Assembly (NCBI RefSeq): GCF_045037415.1
Contig: NZ_CP173438.1
DNA from: Escherichia coli
GTDB taxonomy: Bacteria > Pseudomonadota > Gammaproteobacteria > Enterobacterales > Enterobacteriaceae
DNA: 64,000 nt
Strand: one strand, 5' to 3'
The position numbers were made by a program, and so were the translations under genes. The notes below the pieces were generated by a model. That model did not search any database. It was not told the DNA's origin and saw only the letters and a list, made by a program, of their open reading frames with translations. Shown here in pieces: positions 4,400-45,530 of this stretch (its first letter is position 1; each line of letters opens with the position of its first letter).

Positions 4400-5215
4400 A
4401 TGAGCGTAAAAGTTATCGTCACAGACATGGACGGTACTTTTCTTAACGACGCCAAAACGTACAACCAACCACGTTTTATGGCGCAATATCAGGAACTGAA
4501 AAAGCGCGGCATTGAGTTCGTTGTCGCCAGCGGTAATCAGTATTACCAGCTTATTTCGTTCTTTCCTGAGCTAAAGGATGAGATCTCTTTTGTCGCGGAA
4601 AACGGCGCACTGGTTTACGAACATGGCAAGCAGTTGTTCCACGGCGAACTGACCCGACATGAATCGCGGATTGTTATTGGCGAGTTGCTAAAAGATAAGC
4701 AACTCAATTTTGTCGCCTGCGGTCTGCAAAGTGCATATGTCAGCGAAAATGCCCCCGAAGCATTCGTCGCACTGATGGCAAAACACTACCATCGCCTGAA
4801 ACCTGTAAAAGATTATCAGGAGATTGACGACGTACTGTTCAAGTTTTCGCTCAACCTGCCGGATGAACAAATCCCGTTAGTGATCGACAAACTGCACATA
4901 ACGCTGGATGGCATTATGAAACCCGTCACCAGTGGTTTTGGCTTTATCGACTTGATTATTCCCGGTCTACATAAAGCAAACGGTATTTCGCGGTTACTGA
5001 AACGCTGGGATCTGTCACCGCAAAATGTGGTAGCGATTGGCGACAGCGGTAACGATGCGGAGATGCTGAAAATGGCGCGTTATTCCTTTGCGATGAGCAA
5101 TGCTGCGGAAAACATTAAACAAATCGCCCGTTACGCTACCGATGATAATAATCATGAAGGCGCGCTGAATGTGATTCAGGCGGTGCTGGAAAATAAACCG
5201 CCGTTTAATCTTTGA
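4400..5215 (+). CDS. ybiV: HAD-family sugar phosphatase
   Basis: 271 aa; N-terminal DxDGT motif ([11 protein letters not shown]); Cof-type HAD. Confidence 0.9.
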
Positions 5216-19571: not shown

Positions 19572-20494
19572 CGCTGGCGATTGACAAAACGGCGGCGCTG
19601 CTCGTCGTTCATAAAGGTCCAGGCTATAAAGCGGCTCTGCTTTTGCCCCTGGGCCATCTCTTTTTTTACCACCTTCACCGCACCTACGTCCGTCAAAGCA
19701 CGATACAACGGCGGTAAGTTTTCACCACGAGATACCAGCGAGGTAAACCACATCACCTGCTTCGCGAAGCCTTTGCTCTCTTCAATCATCTTTTTGATAA
19801 AAGCGACCTCACCGCCTTCACACCACAACTCCTGTTGCTGACCACCAAAGTTCAGTGCATCGTCTTTGTTCAGCCCCAGGTTACGGCGTTTACGTTCACT
19901 ACCTGCCCGTGCCGCAGCGGCGGAATCGTGGAATGGCGGGTTACACAAGGTCGCATCGTATTGCTCGTTTTTATGGATGATGCCGTTAAAAATCGCCCCA
20001 CTCTCTTTTTGCCGACGCAGACGAATGGCGCGGTTAAGCCCCGGATTAGCACTGATGATCGCCTGCGCACTGCTTAACGCCTGGCTGCTGGTTTCACTAC
20101 CGGTAAAACGCCAGCCATATTCATGTACGCCAATCAGCGGATAAATACAGTTCGCACCAACGCCGATATCCAGAATGCTGGCATTAGCTGGAATTGTTCC
20201 GCTTGCTTCGGCCAGTAAATCGGCAAGGTGATGAATATAATCCGCCCGGCCCGGTACTGGTGGGCAGAGAAAACCGTCCGGGATATCCCAGTTCGCTACG
20301 GCGTAAAAATGGGCCAGCAACGCCTTATTGAGCGCCTTCACCGCCAGCGGATTGGCAAAGTCTACGCTTTGCTCCCCGGCGGGTGTAAGCGTGAGGAATT
20401 GCCTGAGTTCAGGATTGACCTGACAAAGCGTGGCGAGATCGTAGCGGCTGTGATGACGGTTGCGCGGATGCAACCCCGGTTTCTGGGCGGACAT
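19568..20494 (-). CDS. rlmF: 23S rRNA m6A1618 methyltransferase
   Basis: 308 aa from [15 protein letters not shown]...; SAM-MTase with NPPF motif (CNPPFH); 3' end overlaps ybiO stop. Confidence 0.88.
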
Positions 20495-20769
20495 AGCATT
20501 CTCCTTTAAGCAGCGGCGTAAGATACCCGCATAACGCGACAGGGTAAATATCTGGCTGCGTTTATCATTTCTAAAAACCTTCACATGGCTATGGTTTATG
20601 GCAATTCACCATAAAAAACATCATCATGCATGTCATTGATTTGTCTTATTTTGTAAAAACACATCGTTCAAAAAATAAGCGCATCTCTGTCAATTTTTTG
20701 CGTCATTTTCATCGCGCAGGCGACCTACACTTATCTGGCACTACCCGTTGTATTTATGAGGATGTCATT

Positions 20770-21030
20770 ATGAAAAAGTGCCTCACACTACTGATTGCCA
20801 CCGTCCTGAGCGGAATCTCTCTCACGGCTTATGCCGCGCAACCGATGAGTAACCTGGACAGTGGTCAACTACGGCCCGCCGGTACCGTTTCGGCAACTGG
20901 CGCATCAAACCTAAGCGATCTGGAGGATAAACTGGCAGAAAAAGCGCGCGAACAAGGCGCGAAAGGTTATGTCATTAATTCCGCAGGCGGAAATGACCAG
21001 ATGTTCGGTACTGCAATCATCTACAAATAA
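20770..21030 (+). CDS. mcbA: DUF1471/YdgH-family periplasmic protein (biofilm-related)
   Basis: 86 aa from MKKCLTLLIA...; signal peptide; C-terminal GTAIIYK motif; paralogous to ybiJ. Confidence 0.85.
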   Translation: MKKCLTLLIATVLSGISLTAYAAQPMSNLDSGQLRPAGTVSATGASNLSDLEDKLAEKAREQGAKGYVINSAGGNDQMFGTAIIYK

Positions 21031-21165
21031 CCCCACCAACGTAACTGCATTCGCCTCTGGATGCAGTTTTCGTCCAATTTGTAAGCAAAAAACATCAAAT
21101 ATGAACGCAATGTAAATAAATGTATTTCTTTTTCGCGCAATGGGTGATAGAAAATCGCGCCAAGT

Positions 21166-21192
21166 GATAATGCTTATCAATATTATTATCAC
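21166..21192. promoter_or_regulatory. Fur box in the fiu promoter
   Basis: GATAATGCTTATCAATATTATTATC resembles Fur consensus GATAATGATAATCATTATC; about 100 nt upstream of fiu. Confidence 0.7.
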
Positions 21193-21294
21193 TTGCACGT
21201 ACGCTATCACGGGATTAACAGTGGCATCGCATCCGCAGAGATGCTTTCTCGTGACAGTGAAAATTTCACCATATAAGAAAAAGTCACCTGCAAA

Positions 21295-23577
21295 ATGGAA
21301 AACAATCGCAATTTCCCTGCCAGACAATTTCATTCGCTCACGTTCTTTGCCGGTCTTTGTATTGGTATTACGCCTGTGGCACAGGCACTCGCTGCCGAAG
21401 GGCAAGCTAACGCGGATGACACGCTGGTTGTCGAAGCATCAACGCCTTCGCTTTATGCGCCACAAAAATCTGCCGATCCGAAATTCTCGCGTCCGGTAGC
21501 GGATACTACCCGCACGATGACAGTGATTTCTGAACAAGTGATTAAAGATCAGGGTGCAACCAACCTTACCGACGCGCTCAAAAACGTCCCCGGCGTGGGT
21601 GCGTTTTTTGCGGGTGAGAACGGTAACTCCACCACTGGCGACGCCATTTATATGCGCGGTGCCGATACCTCTAACAGTATTTATATCGATGGCATTCGCG
21701 ATATCGGCAGCGTCTCGCGCGACACCTTCAATACCGAGCAGGTCGAAGTAATTAAAGGGCCGTCCGGCACCGACTACGGGCGCAGCGCACCGACAGGCTC
21801 GATCAATATGATCAGCAAACAGCCGCGCAATGATTCCGGCATTGACGCCTCCGCCAGTATTGGCAGCGCCTGGTTCCGCCGCGGCACGCTGGACGTCAAT
21901 CAGGTCATTGGTGATACCACTGCGGTGCGCCTGAATGTAATGGGCGAAAAAACGCACGATGCCGGACGCGACAAAGTCAAAAATGAGCGTTACGGCGTCG
22001 CCCCTTCTGTCGCTTTTGGCCTTGGTACAGCGAATCGTTTGTATCTTAATTATCTGCATGTCACCCAGCACAACACGCCAGACGGCGGCATTCCGACCAT
22101 CGGTTTACCGGGTTTTTCTGCCCCATCTGCGGGAACAGCGGCCCTGAATCATTCCGGAAAAGTTGATACGCATAACTTTTACGGCACGGATTCCGATTAC
22201 GACGATTCGACCACCGACACCGCTACCATGCGTTTTGAGCACGACATCAACGATAACACCACCATTCGCAACACTACGCGTTGGTCGCGCGTAAAGCAGG
22301 ATTACCTGATGACGGCGATTATGGGTGGAGCGTCGAATATTACCCAGCCCACCAGCGATGTGAATAGCTGGACGTGGTCACGCACGGCGAATACCAAAGA
22401 TGTGAGTAACAAAATTCTCACCAACCAGACCAACCTGACCTCGACGTTCTATACCGGCGCTATCGGTCATGATGTCAGTACCGGCGTGGAATTTACCCGC
22501 GAAACACAGACTAACTATGGCGTTAATCCGGTGACGTTACCGACGGTAAATATTTATCATCCTGACAGCAGCATTCATCCCGGCGGCCTGACGCGCAACG
22601 GCGCAAACGCCAATGGTCAGACGGATACCTTCGCAATTTATGCCTTCGATACGCTGCAAATCACCCGTGATTTTGAGCTGAACGGTGGGATCCGTCTGGA
22701 TAATTATCATACTGAATATGACAGTGCCACCGCCTGCGGCGGCAGCGGGCGCGGTGCCATCACCTGCCCTGCTGGCGTGGCAAAAGGTTCTCCGGTAACC
22801 ACCGTCGACACCGCCAAGTCGGGCAATCTGGTGAACTGGAAAGCCGGGGCGCTGTATCACCTGACGGAAAACGGCAATGTTTATATTAACTATGCCGTTT
22901 CCCAGCAGCCGCCGGGCGGCAACAACTTCGCCCTTGCGCAGTCTGGCAGCGGTAACAGTGCCAACCGCACCGATTTTAAACCGCAAAAAGCCAACACCAG
23001 CGAGATTGGCACCAAATGGCAGGTTCTGGATAAACGCCTGCTACTTACCGCCGCGCTGTTCCGTACTGATATTGAAAATGAAGTTGAGCAAAATGATGAT
23101 GGGACTTATTCGCAATATGGTAAGAAACGTGTCGAAGGCTATGAGATATCCGTGGCCGGGAATATCACCCCCGCGTGGCAGATGATTGGCGGCTATACCC
23201 AGCAAAAAGCAACTATCAAAAACGGCAAAGATGTTGCCCAGGATGGTTCCTCATCGCTGCCGTATACCCCGGAACACGCCTTCACCTTATGGAGCCAGTA
23301 TCAGGCAACCGATGATATTTCTGTTGGTGCGGGCGCACGGTATATCGGCAGTATGCATAAAGGTTCAGACGGCGCGGTGGGAACGCCAGCATTTACCGAA
23401 GGTTATTGGGTCGCCGACGCCAAACTGGGGTATCGGGTTAATCGCAATCTCGACTTCCAGCTAAACGTCTACAACCTGTTTGATACCGATTACGTCGCCT
23501 CAATCAATAAGAGCGGCTACCGTTATCACCCGGGCGAGCCAAGAACCTTCTTGCTCACAGCCAATATGCATTTCTGA
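21295..23577 (+). CDS. fiu: TonB-dependent catecholate siderophore receptor
   Basis: 760 aa; signal peptide; plug plus beta-barrel; C-terminal Phe. Confidence 0.93.
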
Positions 23578-23584
23578 TTCAGAT

Positions 23585-23607
23585 GTGGGGCGCAGGCCCC
23601 ACTTTTT
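23585..23607 (+). terminator. hairpin with T-run between fiu and ybiX (intra-operon attenuator)
   Basis: gtggggcgcaggccccac followed by ttttt, 12 nt before the ybiX start. Confidence 0.6.
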
Positions 23608-23618
23608 GGAGAACTTGT

Positions 23619-24296
23619 ATGATGTACCACATTCCCGGCGTGTTATCGCCACAGGACGTCGCCCGTTTTCGCGAACACCTGGAACAAGCCGAATGGGTGG
23701 ATGGACGCGTCACCACCGGCGCACAAGGTGCGCAAGTTAAGAACAATCAACAAGTAGACACCCGCAGCGCCCTGTACGCCGCCCTGCAAAATGAGGTGCT
23801 GAACGCGGTTAACCAACATGCTTTGTTCTTTGCCGCGGCCTTGCCGCGTACCCTTTCCACGCCGCTGTTTAATCGCTATCAGAACAATGAAACCTATGGT
23901 TTTCATGTGGATGGCGCAGTACGCAGCCATCCACAAAACGGCTGGATGCGCACTGACCTTTCTGCCACGCTGTTTTTAAGCGATCCAGAAAGCTACGACG
24001 GCGGCGAACTGGTCGTTAATGACACCTTCGGGCAACATCGGGTAAAACTCCCGGCAGGCGATCTGGTGTTGTATCCCTCCAGCAGCCTGCATTGCGTGAC
24101 ACCCGTAACCCGCGGCGTGCGAGTGGCATCATTTATGTGGATCCAGTCGATGATCCGCGATGATAAAAAGCGCGCCATGCTGTTTGAACTGGACAACAAT
24201 ATTCAGTCGCTGAAAAGCCACTACGGCGAAAGTGAAGAGATCCTGTCGCTGCTCAATCTTTATCATAATCTGCTGCGGGAATGGTCGGAGATCTGA
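23619..24296 (+). CDS. ybiX: PKHD-type Fe(II)/2-oxoglutarate-dependent hydroxylase
   Basis: 225 aa from [10 protein letters not shown]...; HxD...H iron-binding motif (FHVDG...SSSLHCV). Confidence 0.88.
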
Positions 24297-24369
24297 CGCT
24301 TGAACTGCCCGAGTTCGTCCCTATATTAGCTACACTTAACTGTACAAGCATTGATATGGGGAGGACGAT

Positions 24370-24636
24370 ATGGCATCCGGTTGGGCTAATGATGACGCCG
24401 TCAACGAACAGATCAACAGTACAATTGAAGATGCGATTGCCCGCGCTCGGGGTGAAATTCCGCGTGGCGAAAGCCTGTATGAATGTGAAGAGTGCGGTGC
24501 CCCTATCCCGCAGGCCCGTCGGGAAGCCATTCCTGGCGTGCGCTTATGCATTCATTGTCAGCAGGAGAAAGATTTACAAAAACCAGCTTATACAGGATAT
24601 AATCGCAGAGGTTCGAAAGACAGCCAGTTACGTTAA
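24370..24636 (+). CDS. ybiI: DksA/TraR-family C4 zinc-finger protein
   Basis: 88 aa; CxxC-N17-CxxC (CEECGAPIP...CIHCQQ). Confidence 0.88.
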   Translation: MASGWANDDAVNEQINSTIEDAIARARGEIPRGESLYECEECGAPIPQARREAIPGVRLCIHCQQEKDLQKPAYTGYNRRGSKDSQLR

Positions 24637-24900
24637 CTACAACTGGCGGGATGTATAGCGAATATAATTTGTATTTTGCGTGGCATTCCGTGCCTTTAAC
24701 GCTACCGTGACTGCCACGCGGTATAAAACAAGTCCATAAGTACAACAAATAAATGGTTTATCAGTATGTTAGATATCAATCAATTTATTTGAACAAGGTG
24801 GTCAATTCTCTTCGATTTTATCTCTCGTAAAAAAACGTGATACTCATCACATCGACGAAACAACGTCACTTATACAAAAATCACCTGCGAGAGATTAATT

Positions 24901-25161
24901 ATGAAAACTATCAATACTGTTGTTGCTGCTATGGCTCTTTCAACTCTGTCATTTGGCGTGTTCGCGGCGGAACCGGTAACGGCATCCCAGGCACAGAACA
25001 TGAATAAAATCGGCGTGGTTTCTGCCGATGGCGCATCCACCCTCGATGCCCTGGAAGCGAAACTGGCTGAGAAAGCCGCGGCGGCCGGTGCCAGTGGATA
25101 CAGCATCACTTCTGCCACCAACAACAATAAATTAAGCGGTACTGCGGTAATTTATAAGTAA
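24901..25161 (+). CDS. ybiJ: DUF1471/YdgH-family periplasmic protein
   Basis: 86 aa; signal peptide; C-terminal GTAVIYK; paralogous to mcbA. Confidence 0.88.
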   Translation: MKTINTVVAAMALSTLSFGVFAAEPVTASQAQNMNKIGVVSADGASTLDALEAKLAEKAAAAGASGYSITSATNNNKLSGTAVIYK

Positions 25162-25271
25162 TTCGTAAGCTGGATCAGGCGTTTACGCTACGTTCAGCAC
25201 AAGTATTTCCCTGTCTGTTTGCCGACAGACGCATATGCTCTAACCCTCATGATCCTATGTTACCCTTGTTT

Positions 25272-25298
25272 GCCCGTCCGCCACTGGACGGGCTTTTT

Positions 25299-25300
<2 letters not shown>
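25272..25300 (+). terminator. rho-independent terminator after ybiJ
   Basis: gcccgtccgccactggacgggc followed by ttttttt. Confidence 0.8.
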
Positions 25301-26384
<1,084 letters not shown>

Positions 26385-44401: not shown

Positions 44402-45391
44402 TTAGCCACCAATGTACGATAAGTTTTGCGTAATACCGGTGTTATTTTGATGCAGGAAATGGGTCTGTTTTTTCTCCCGCAGCGCCGCTGAAATACGCGC
44501 TTCCAGCGCCTGTTGCTGGGTATCGTTTTCCAGCAGATCGCGCAGGTTAACGCCGCCTTCACCAAACAGGCAGAGATGGAGTTTACCAATGGAGGAAACG
44601 CGCAGGCGGTTGCAAGTGGCGCAGAAATCTTTTTCATACGGCATGATAAGGCCAATCTCTCCGGCGTAATCCGGATGACAAAAGACTTGCGCGGGACCGT
44701 CGCTGCGTTGACGTAATTGGTGGATCCAGCCGCGACGCAGTAACTCGTCACGCAGAACCTGACCAGAGATGTGATGCTTACGGAAGAGCTCGCTGCCCTC
44801 GCCCGTTTCCATCAGTTCGATGAAACGCAGCTGGATGGGACGATGCTGGATCCAGTTCAGAAAGGTGTCGAGCTGGTGATGATTCACATCACGCATCAGC
44901 ACGGTATTGACTTTGACCTTCTCAAAACCGGCCTCAAATGCAGCATCGATTCCTGCCATGACCTGATTGAATTTATCCTGCCCGGTAATGGCATGAAACT
45001 GGCGAGCGTCAAGGCTATCAACGCTGACGTTGATGCCAGTAAGTCCAGCATCGCGCCAGTTCGCCACATCGCGCTCCAGACGGTAACCATTGGTGGTGAC
45101 CGCTATCTGGCGAATAGCGTCGTTTTCTCGCACAGCGGCGATGATATCGGTAAAGTCGCGGCGTAAAGATGGCTCACCACCTGTCAGACGGACTTTTTCG
45201 GTGCCCAGACTGGCGAAGGCGCGCGTAACCCGGCGAATTTCATCGACGGTCAGGAAGCCTTTATTGGTGACGCCGCTCGGCTTGTAACCATCCGGCAGGC
45301 AGTAGGTGCAACGAAAGTTACACACATCAGTAATCGACAGGCGCAAGTAGTAAAACTTACGCGCAAATGCATCAGTCAGTTGTGAAGCCAT
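44402..45391 (-). CDS. moaA: GTP 3',8-cyclase (radical SAM)
   Basis: 329 aa from [31 protein letters not shown]; radical-SAM CxxxCxxC. Confidence 0.93.
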
Positions 45392-45530
45392 GTACACCTT
45401 TCCAGATACGGGAGGCGAAGTCATTTCTTCCTTCGCCCTGGTGGCAATCTTTACGAGCATTGTCACGGCCAAAGCACCGTATCAGTTGACCCAGGTGCAG
45501 AGGCTAGAGTGTTTAGTGGTTAAGCCGATA
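45392..45530 (-). ncRNA. Moco riboswitch region in the moaA 5' leader
   Basis: structured leader directly upstream of moaA with hairpin ggcgaaggaagaaatgacttcgcc and RBS ggaaagg; assignment by position and recalled knowledge, not a covariance-model fit. Confidence 0.5.

Follow-up and report, generated by a model that had tools for sequence, protein, structure and literature searches.

In Escherichia coli K-12, the genes fiu, ybiX and ybiI (b0805-b0804-b0803) belong to the core Fur regulon, and fiu-ybiX(-ybiI) is named in the literature as a Fur-regulated operon. A similar pairing is found in more distant bacteria: in PiuA/PiuC of Pseudomonas aeruginosa and Acinetobacter, and in CciT/CciO of Caulobacter crescentus, a Fur-regulated receptor of the Fiu/PiuA type likewise lies beside a PKHD-type oxygenase. 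We examined the corresponding unit in a stretch of 64,000 nucleotides (nt) of E. coli DNA (contig NZ_CP173438.1; hereafter the window), and in particular a hairpin located between fiu and ybiX. The locus carries the same genes as K-12, in the same order, with the same Fur operator and intergenic hairpin. The K-12 fiu-ybiX spacer, as printed in a published Term-seq table, is identical to that of the window through the T-run and shows one mismatch after the Shine-Dalgarno (SD) sequence; the window and K-12 differ by strain-level substitutions only, and both carry the short 41-nt allele of the spacer. The published K-12 operon calls, the Fur peak obtained by chromatin immunoprecipitation with exonuclease treatment (ChIP-exo) and the RNA-seq data apply to it directly. 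The operon, its control by Fur, the 3' end at the hairpin and the pairing of receptor and oxygenase have all been published, and the locus is an ordinary one. What is new, but minor, is that the hairpin is under structural selection across Enterobacterales and that a common allele of the spacer carries an inserted bacterial interspersed mosaic element (BIME).

We propose that the hairpin is probably a leaky intrinsic terminator, through which a single iron-controlled promoter gives about five times more receptor than oxygenase message. The locus as a whole corresponds to the E. coli transcription unit fiu-ybiX, which is repressed by Fur and runs on into ybiI. The features on which this proposal rests are the following.

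21144..21171, + strand: fiu promoter-like site (GTGATA, 16-nt spacer, GATAAT), found by a consensus scan with 9/12 matches
21161..21195, no strand assigned: Fur operator, a perfect 11-nt inverted repeat CAAGTGATAAT/ATTATCACTTG enclosing the Fur box at 21166-21184
21295..23577, + strand: fiu, catecholate siderophore receptor, TonB-dependent, 760 amino acids (aa) (RefSeq, Pfam)
23585-23602, + strand: fiu-ybiX hairpin GTGGGGC-GCAG-GCCCCAC, with a stem of 7 base pairs (bp), 6 of them GC pairs, and a 4-nt loop
23603-23607, + strand: T-run TTTTT (U5 tract in the RNA), directly after the hairpin stem and followed by GG
23608..23611, + strand: ybiX SD sequence GGAG, 7 nt before the ATG at 23619, read from the sequence
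23619..24296, + strand: ybiX, cytoplasmic PKHD-type Fe(II)/2-oxoglutarate oxygenase, 225 aa (Pfam, motif, PDB relatives)

The first-pass annotation of this DNA, made from the letters alone, had placed a Fur box ahead of fiu, and this was confirmed. The box at 21166-21184 matches the 19-nt consensus GATAATGATAATCATTATC at 16/19 positions and is the sole such match in the window, where 0.02 would be expected by chance. It begins at the -10 hexamer GATAAT (21166-21171) of the predicted fiu promoter, so that the operator overlaps the core promoter. Among the 44 Enterobacterales loci fetched with YbiX as the query, all 44 have a match of at least 14/19 upstream of fiu, as compared to 1.4% of background windows. 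The MG1655 Fur ChIP-exo peak P24 lies 115-139 nt upstream of the fiu ATG (PMC10164565), which corresponds to 21156-21180 of the window after conversion from older K-12 coordinates. The same study assigned this peak to 'fiu-ybiX' or to 'fiu,ybiX,ybiI' in 8 strains, the three-gene assignment being that of W3110, W and 042 (PMC10164565). Deletion of fur raised expression in MG1655 by log2 fold changes of 5.47 for fiu, 5.21 for ybiX and 3.0 for ybiI, and in W3110 by 10.0 for fiu and 7.1 for ybiX; ybiJ, downstream of ybiI, responded with 1.24 in MG1655 and 3.08 in W3110, and mcbA, upstream of fiu, did not respond (0.40, not significant) (PMC10164565). Thus the Fur-dependent induction declines stepwise through ybiI to ybiJ, where it is weak, and the upstream mcbA is not induced. 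A published fiu promoter-lacZ fusion is also repressed by Fur.

The hairpin with its T-run was present at 23585-23607 exactly as the first-pass annotation had described it. The fiu stop codon ends at 23577, and the hairpin and U5 tract span the 8-30 nt beyond it. The predicted fold has an energy of -19.3 kcal/mol (z = -2.6), equalled by 2/200 shuffles. A terminator scan of the 5-kb region as a whole was not above chance (9 sites versus 5.8 +/- 2.4 expected), and we judge the hairpin to be real because of its conservation and of the published 3'-end mapping, not because of the scan. By Term-seq of K-12, evidently grown in M63-glucose medium, a 'primary' fiu 3' end was mapped at 839219(-). This is the last T of CCCCACTTTTT, position 51 of the printed 61-nt context, and hence 23607 in the window; our reading of the printed string was checked against the row for SgrS in that table. 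Neither of the Term-seq sheets for lysogeny broth (LB) contains the fiu 3' end, although the ybiI 3' end was seen in this medium.

The annotation had further suggested that the hairpin could set the ratio of receptor to hydroxylase, and the published RNA levels agree with this. In two replicates of the MG1655 fur deletion strain the expression values were 1862/1665 for fiu, 387/374 for ybiX, 191/179 for ybiI, 82/69 for ybiJ and 23/28 for mcbA; in W3110 they were 2376/2334, 405/393, 72/69 and 34/31 for the first four genes, and mcbA was not seen (PMC10164565). Since these values behave as length-normalised (for example, carA = carB), they can be compared between genes, and the RNA drop from fiu to ybiX upon fur deletion is 4.6-fold in MG1655 and 5.9-fold in W3110. 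Rather than the uniform coverage of fiu-ybiX that the annotation had named as the outcome contrary to its proposal, the RNA of fur deletion strains therefore steps down across the hairpin. The mapped 3' end falls exactly at the end of the U-run, 5 nt past the stem, which favours termination in E. coli, and we infer that Rho-independent termination, rather than trimming, is the origin of the fiu 3' end.

The proposed sequence of events would be as follows. When iron is plentiful, Fur-Fe(II) on the palindromic operator lying over the fiu -10 hexamer would block transcription; when iron is scarce, transcription would start at the fiu promoter. About four of five of the derepressed transcripts would end at the hairpin and U5 tract, and the remaining one in five or so would read on into ybiX, whose ribosome-binding site begins 1 nt past the U tract. 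A smaller share would reach ybiI and ybiJ.

To follow the hairpin in relatives, we used a scan with YbiX as the query and one genome per species, which gave 80 loci from Enterobacterales to Betaproteobacteria; the Enterobacterales spacers came from Escherichia, Citrobacter, Leclercia, Silvania, Klebsiella, Raoultella, Kluyvera, Pantoea, Rouxiella, Serratia and Tatumella. Of 41 distinct Enterobacterales spacers, 40 contain a stem that reaches 7 bp or more and includes 4 or more GC pairs, versus 6.6% of shuffled spacers. The stem sequences themselves are unrelated (GTGGGGC, GCGGGGCG, CAGGGGG, ACGCCGCAG, ATGCCGCAGC and CGCCACCTG). The stem ends 15-22 nt before the start codon in 36/36 spacers with an ordinary hairpin, and 13 nt before it in L002, one of the two spacers here with the BIME allele described below. 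A plain MAFFT alignment of the spacers, in which GGAG or AGGAG is conserved ahead of ybiX, shifted the stems of Klebsiella and Tatumella by one column, and the spacers were therefore realigned with a covariance model. In the new alignment 90% of cells are paired, 4/7 pairs are changed on both sides, and the covariation score was reached by 0/500 shuffles; as this alignment is fitted to the structure, the pair counts lean to the model and are to be read together with the register-free listing of stems. These results show that the structure of the spacer hairpin is under selection in Enterobacterales.

Several points weigh against the hairpin being a leaky terminator that sets the ratio of receptor to oxygenase. 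The 4.6- to 5.9-fold drop implies about 17-22% steady-state read-through, a figure derived from expression values of whole genes instead of from read coverage along the spacer. Neither steady-state RNA-seq nor Term-seq can distinguish termination from differential decay or from trimming by exonucleases, and our literature search for in vitro termination or Rho-inhibition data on the fiu-ybiX hairpin found none. The E. coli U tract is weak, with just 5 U before a GG; other genera mostly have 3 U or an interrupted tract, and over the Enterobacterales spacers the length of the T-run after the stem is between 0 and 7 (median 3). In Pseudocitrobacter (L017, L024, L026; just upstream of position 5001) the hairpin is replaced by a palindrome of 11-14 bp, GCGCTGCGCTT...AAGCGCAGCGC, which resembles a repetitive extragenic palindrome (REP) and has no T-run. 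This replacement suggests that the stem-loop, and not a terminator as such, is what is kept, and the conserved element may be a stem-loop shielding the 3' end rather than a terminator. As for the oxygenase, the literature searched, including 2025 papers, reports no enzymatic activity or substrate of YbiX.

These points lead to another explanation, namely that the hairpin is mainly an RNA-stability element. Transcripts that read past it, or that are cut by an endonuclease, would be trimmed from 3' to 5' by exonucleases down to the stem, leaving the fiu message stable and the ybiX-ybiI tail less so, and the 5:1 ratio would stem from decay and not from termination. The conservation of the stem but not of the U tract across Enterobacterales fits this explanation, as does the palindrome that stands in for the hairpin in Pseudocitrobacter. 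REP/BIME elements act as stabilisers of upstream mRNA, and a REP/BIME pair lies in this same spacer in about 10% of complete E. coli genomes. The ybiI 3' end, too, lies 12 nt past a hairpin devoid of a U tract. However, the E. coli fiu 3' end lies exactly at the end of the U5 tract, 5 nt past the stem, where intrinsic termination predicts it, and the 7-bp stem with its 6 GC pairs, 4-nt loop and U5 tract satisfies the terminator criteria of the scan. We consider a mainly stabilising role unlikely, though the main alternative, and retain leaky termination as the preferred explanation for E. coli.

A further explanation is translational coupling, in which an outer helix, formed by the nucleotides after the fiu stop codon and the ybiX SD, would have to be opened by the ribosome finishing fiu before YbiX could be translated. 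The minimum-free-energy fold of the E. coli spacer pairs UUCAGA, after the stop, with UUUGGA, which includes part of the SD; the SD pairing in E. coli exceeds that of 99% of flank shuffles, and the stem always ends 13-22 nt before the ATG. Over the set of relatives, however, pairing of the SD with the 5' flank averages 1.79 versus 1.97 in flank shuffles, with 13/36 distinct spacers above the null mean, and coupling leaves both the RNA step-down and the mapped 3' end unexplained. We regard it as very unlikely. An SD clamp as a conserved feature was rejected: it is strong in E. coli and Leclercia and not above flank shuffles over the 36 spacers.

An abundant 3' end at a terminator-like hairpin is also what would be seen if the fiu 3' untranslated region (UTR) were released as a small regulatory RNA (sRNA), with the hairpin as the sRNA terminator, and the homologous operon of Caulobacter is reported to have an annotated sRNA gene located between those for the receptor and the oxygenase. 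In E. coli, however, the untranslated part amounts to only 30 nt and its U tract is a short one for Hfq to bind; beyond the stem the spacer shows no conservation, and the literature search gave no report of a fiu 3' UTR sRNA. An Rfam search of 20000-26000 with E values up to 1 returned two weak sub-threshold matches downstream of ybiJ and none at the hairpin. The sRNA explanation is the least credible of all, and leaky termination is again preferred.

The same Term-seq data contain two 3' ends internal to open reading frames (ORFs) of the unit. One lies 77 nt into fiu (841454, about 21371 in the window). The other lies in ybiX (838863, about 23963); about 30 nt upstream of it there is a perfect 10-nt inverted repeat (23906-23935).

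We then considered the two proteins whose messages the hairpin would apportion. Fiu has a plug domain (PF07715, E 2e-22, residues 68-168) and a barrel (PF00593, E 2e-55, residues 251-728), and imports iron-catecholates and catechol-drug conjugates across the outer membrane. YbiX matches PF13640, 2OG-FeII_Oxy_3 (E 1e-14), and PF18331, PKHD_C (E 2e-18). The triad His96-Val-Asp98...His158 is present in its sequence, and His96, Asp98 and His158 are presumably the iron ligands, as in the family. Its full-length relatives in PDB are 3dkq (E 5e-76) and the PiuC entries 9ghl and 9qn0-4 (E about 1e-69). The chemistry ascribed to YbiX is predicted throughout; as a cytoplasmic Fe(II)/2-oxoglutarate oxygenase, it would act in the Fiu pathway. 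In 79/80 loci the ybiX homologue is preceded, on the same strand, by a gene for a TonB-dependent receptor, two of these loci having a receptor-oxygenase gap of 780 or 1341 nt.

From this linkage the first-pass annotation had proposed a role for the oxygenase in iron or siderophore processing, and published phenotypes support such a role. Deletion of both cirA and ybiX raises the cefiderocol minimum inhibitory concentration, a ybiX nonsense mutation (stop codon) confers resistance to a catechol conjugate, and in Caulobacter the homologous CciT and CciO cooperate to take up iron. In addition, an ISKpn8 insertion in the fiu-ybiX spacer was selected under cefiderocol, and piuC mutations of P. aeruginosa are linked to cefiderocol resistance. 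Fiu is one of two E. coli entry routes for cefiderocol and other catechol-drug conjugates, and ybiX has been implicated by recent work, so that the ratio of YbiX to Fiu has some practical relevance. The real question is what YbiX, PiuC and CciO oxidise and why the enzyme travels with a catecholate receptor; the window sequence makes this no easier to test.

Damaged copies of the unit were encountered as well. An IS4 element splits fiu in three genomes (NZ_OZ040274.1, NZ_OZ039820.1 and NZ_AP046542.1) that are otherwise 100% identical over the locus, and the loss of Fiu in such genomes bears on susceptibility to catechol-drug conjugates. Citrobacter sp. Awk 4 (L043, 4465-5674) has the last 42 codons of fiu directly after mcbA and a disrupted ybiX start; the fiu-ybiX unit looks as if it is decaying in this one lineage. 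In a Kluyvera locus (L028) fiu is in three frame-shifted pieces, and in L004 ybiI is frame-shifted.

The fiu-ybiX spacer exists in a second allele, 215 nt long instead of 41 nt, in E. coli Nissle 1917, CFT073 and a UK blood isolate. The fiu stop codon is followed by a degenerate copy of the hairpin, GTGGGGCGCAAGGCTCAC, then by about 170 nt with two inverted REPs, the intact hairpin with T5, the SD sequence and ybiX. Its positions in the fetched loci are as follows.

L082 422-637 (Nissle 1917), L083 2030-2244 (CFT073) and L084: long spacer allele, equivalent to 23578-23618 of the window
L002 4789-5000 and L004 4779-4990: long spacer allele of 212 nt

The same order of elements was seen in E. 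whittamii and in a second Escherichia species. Of 5426 complete E. coli genomes, 556 (about 10%) contain at least 80% of the 181-nt insert, and its REP portion recurs at least 40 times per genome. Among the nine strains of the Fur study, CFT073 is the only one for which the listed Fur-bound unit consists of fiu by itself, ybiX being entered as 'N/A' (PMC10164565). This listing could reflect a real uncoupling or an artefact of operon calling across a 215-nt gap. Together with the cefiderocol-selected insertion in the same spacer, it hints that the long allele lowers read-through, leaving ybiX and ybiI partly uncoupled from Fur in the inspected extraintestinal pathogenic strains, an idea that we put forward tentatively and hold to be rather doubtful. 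If it were true, the baseline susceptibility of carriers to catechol-siderophore drugs such as cefiderocol could shift.

The third gene of the unit, ybiI, may be read both from the fiu promoter and from a promoter of its own.

24300..24327, + strand: ybiI promoter-like site (TTGAAC, 16-nt spacer, TATATT; a C directly precedes the -10), from a consensus scan
24370..24636, + strand: ybiI, 88-aa DksA/TraR-type C4 zinc-finger protein (Pfam, cysteines, PDB)
24623..24659, + strand: ybiI 3'-end region, with a hairpin GCCAGTT...AACTGGC (24623-24647) without a T-run

YbiI matches zf-dksA_traR (PF01258, E 2.5e-12) and has the C4 cysteines Cys39, Cys42, Cys60 and Cys63; PDB entry 2kgo is YbiI itself, and TraR chains match YbiI at E 2e-11. 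The gene has been placed in the Fur-1 iModulon and is elsewhere called part of the fiu-ybiX operon. In addition, ybiI possesses a sigma-S promoter of its own and is transcribed under conditions that leave fiu silent: genomic SELEX (systematic evolution of ligands by exponential enrichment) with sigma-S holoenzyme gave a peak in the ybiX-ybiI spacer, and the sigma-S dependence of ybiI was established by quantitative reverse-transcription PCR, gel shift and potassium permanganate (KMnO4) footprinting. The candidate site at 24300..24327 is probably this published promoter, from which ybiI would mainly be driven. Term-seq mapped the primary ybiI 3' end at 838167(-) in LB at both densities, which is 24659 in the window, downstream of the 24623-24647 hairpin. 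Seven loci (L019, L023, L027, L028, L031, L033 and L034, from Kluyvera and another Enterobacteriaceae genome) have fiu-ybiX followed by ybiJ, without ybiI; these Kluyvera-type loci imply that ybiI is a dispensable addition to the unit.

The unit is flanked by mcbA and ybiJ, and the remaining features of the region are those of its two borders.

20770..21030, + strand: mcbA (ybiM), 86-aa secreted DUF1471 protein (RefSeq annotation), outside the Fur unit
21043..21068, + strand: inverted repeat AACTGCAT/ATGCAGTT (8 bp) followed by TTTCG, from an inverted-repeat scan
24901..25161, + strand: ybiJ, 86-aa secreted DUF1471 protein (Pfam)
25272..25293, + strand: strong terminator-like hairpin, 9 bp with 7 GC pairs, and a T7 run after it, from a terminator scan

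All five genes, mcbA-fiu-ybiX-ybiI-ybiJ, lie on the + strand with the coordinates given in the first-pass annotation, as confirmed by the RefSeq annotation of an identical stretch. Annotated E. coli chromosomes match the interval 20600-25300 with 100% identity, and 5416/5426 complete E. coli genomes contain at least 80% of it; the five genes form a core E. coli locus. Judging from its position, the repeat at 21043..21068 is probably the mcbA terminator and would insulate fiu from mcbA. At the other border, the hairpin at 25272..25293 would end rightward transcripts and faces the convergent gene hcxB (gene order from RefSeq). Between ybiJ and hcxB, RefSeq lists a 20-codon ORF, ybiE (25175-25234, - strand); over it, on the + strand, lies an Rfam match to naRNA4 of 25.3 bits, against a gathering score of 59.5, which is probably due to chance. 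Elsewhere in the window, at 45379-45523 on the - strand, there is a molybdenum-cofactor riboswitch (Rfam RF01055, 103 bits), a known element with no relation to fiu-ybiX.

The annotation had described the unit as bracketed by two DUF1471 paralogs. The paralogy holds: McbA and YbiJ both match PF07338 over residues 34-86 (E 1e-19 and 7e-18, respectively), they align without gaps over 86 aa with 47% identity (E 2e-16), and the peptides quoted for them are present in their translations. Their N-termini, MKKCLTLLIATVLSGISLTAYA in McbA and MKTINTVVAAMALSTLSFGVFA in YbiJ, look like signal peptides by eye. They share PF07338 and these signal-like N-termini with the DUF1471 (YhcN/BhsA/McbA) family of small periplasmic stress proteins. 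No evidence was found that links either of them to fiu-ybiX; E. coli has ten DUF1471 paralogs, McbA and YbiJ among them. The bracket, on the other hand, is a matter of synteny only. It is found in Escherichia, Citrobacter, Leclercia and Silvania and in parts of Klebsiella, Raoultella and Kluyvera. In Pantoea, Serratia, Rouxiella and Tatumella, neither paralog lies within 5 kb of fiu-ybiX. Salmonella has YbiJ and lacks McbA, whose closest Salmonella relative is YcfR/BhsA (47%). A recent local duplication giving McbA and YbiJ is unsupported, since McbA is equally near to YcfR/BhsA, and so is a functional bracket, as mcbA is not Fur-responsive and several genera have fiu-ybiX without either paralog. 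The DUF1471 paralogs mcbA and ybiJ are neighbours of the Fur unit but do not belong to it functionally, ybiJ receiving only weak read-through. The 264-nt ybiI-ybiJ spacer contains an imperfect 20-nt inverted repeat (24669-24728, core GCGTGGCA...TGCCACGC), and a second inverted repeat (24746-24791) lies upstream of ybiJ; these repeats could serve stress-induced ybiJ as a site for a regulator or as a structure in the RNA.

Compared with known systems, the fiu-ybiX spacer resembles other intra-operon intrinsic terminators, in which a GC-rich stem-loop and short U tract likewise lie between co-transcribed genes, with a mapped 3' end at the U tract and an approximately 5-fold step-down in expression. 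Unlike in typical cases, its U tract is short and poorly conserved, which leaves termination and protection against decay to be weighed as the selected function; read-through at this spacer is not known to be modulated by any factor or ligand. The spacer also sets the Enterobacterales apart from the more distant receptor-oxygenase pairs. In Enterobacterales a conserved hairpin precedes the start codon by 13-22 nt, whereas 17/32 distinct spacers from outside Enterobacterales are 25 nt or shorter and have no hairpin; another 12 have their own hairpin, with a T-run after it in several cases. The association of the pair with ybiI and the DUF1471 neighbours is confined to a subset of Enterobacteriaceae. 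What Fiu/YbiX, PiuA/PiuC and CciT/CciO have in common is that, in each, mutations in the oxygenase alter siderophore-drug susceptibility or iron homeostasis.

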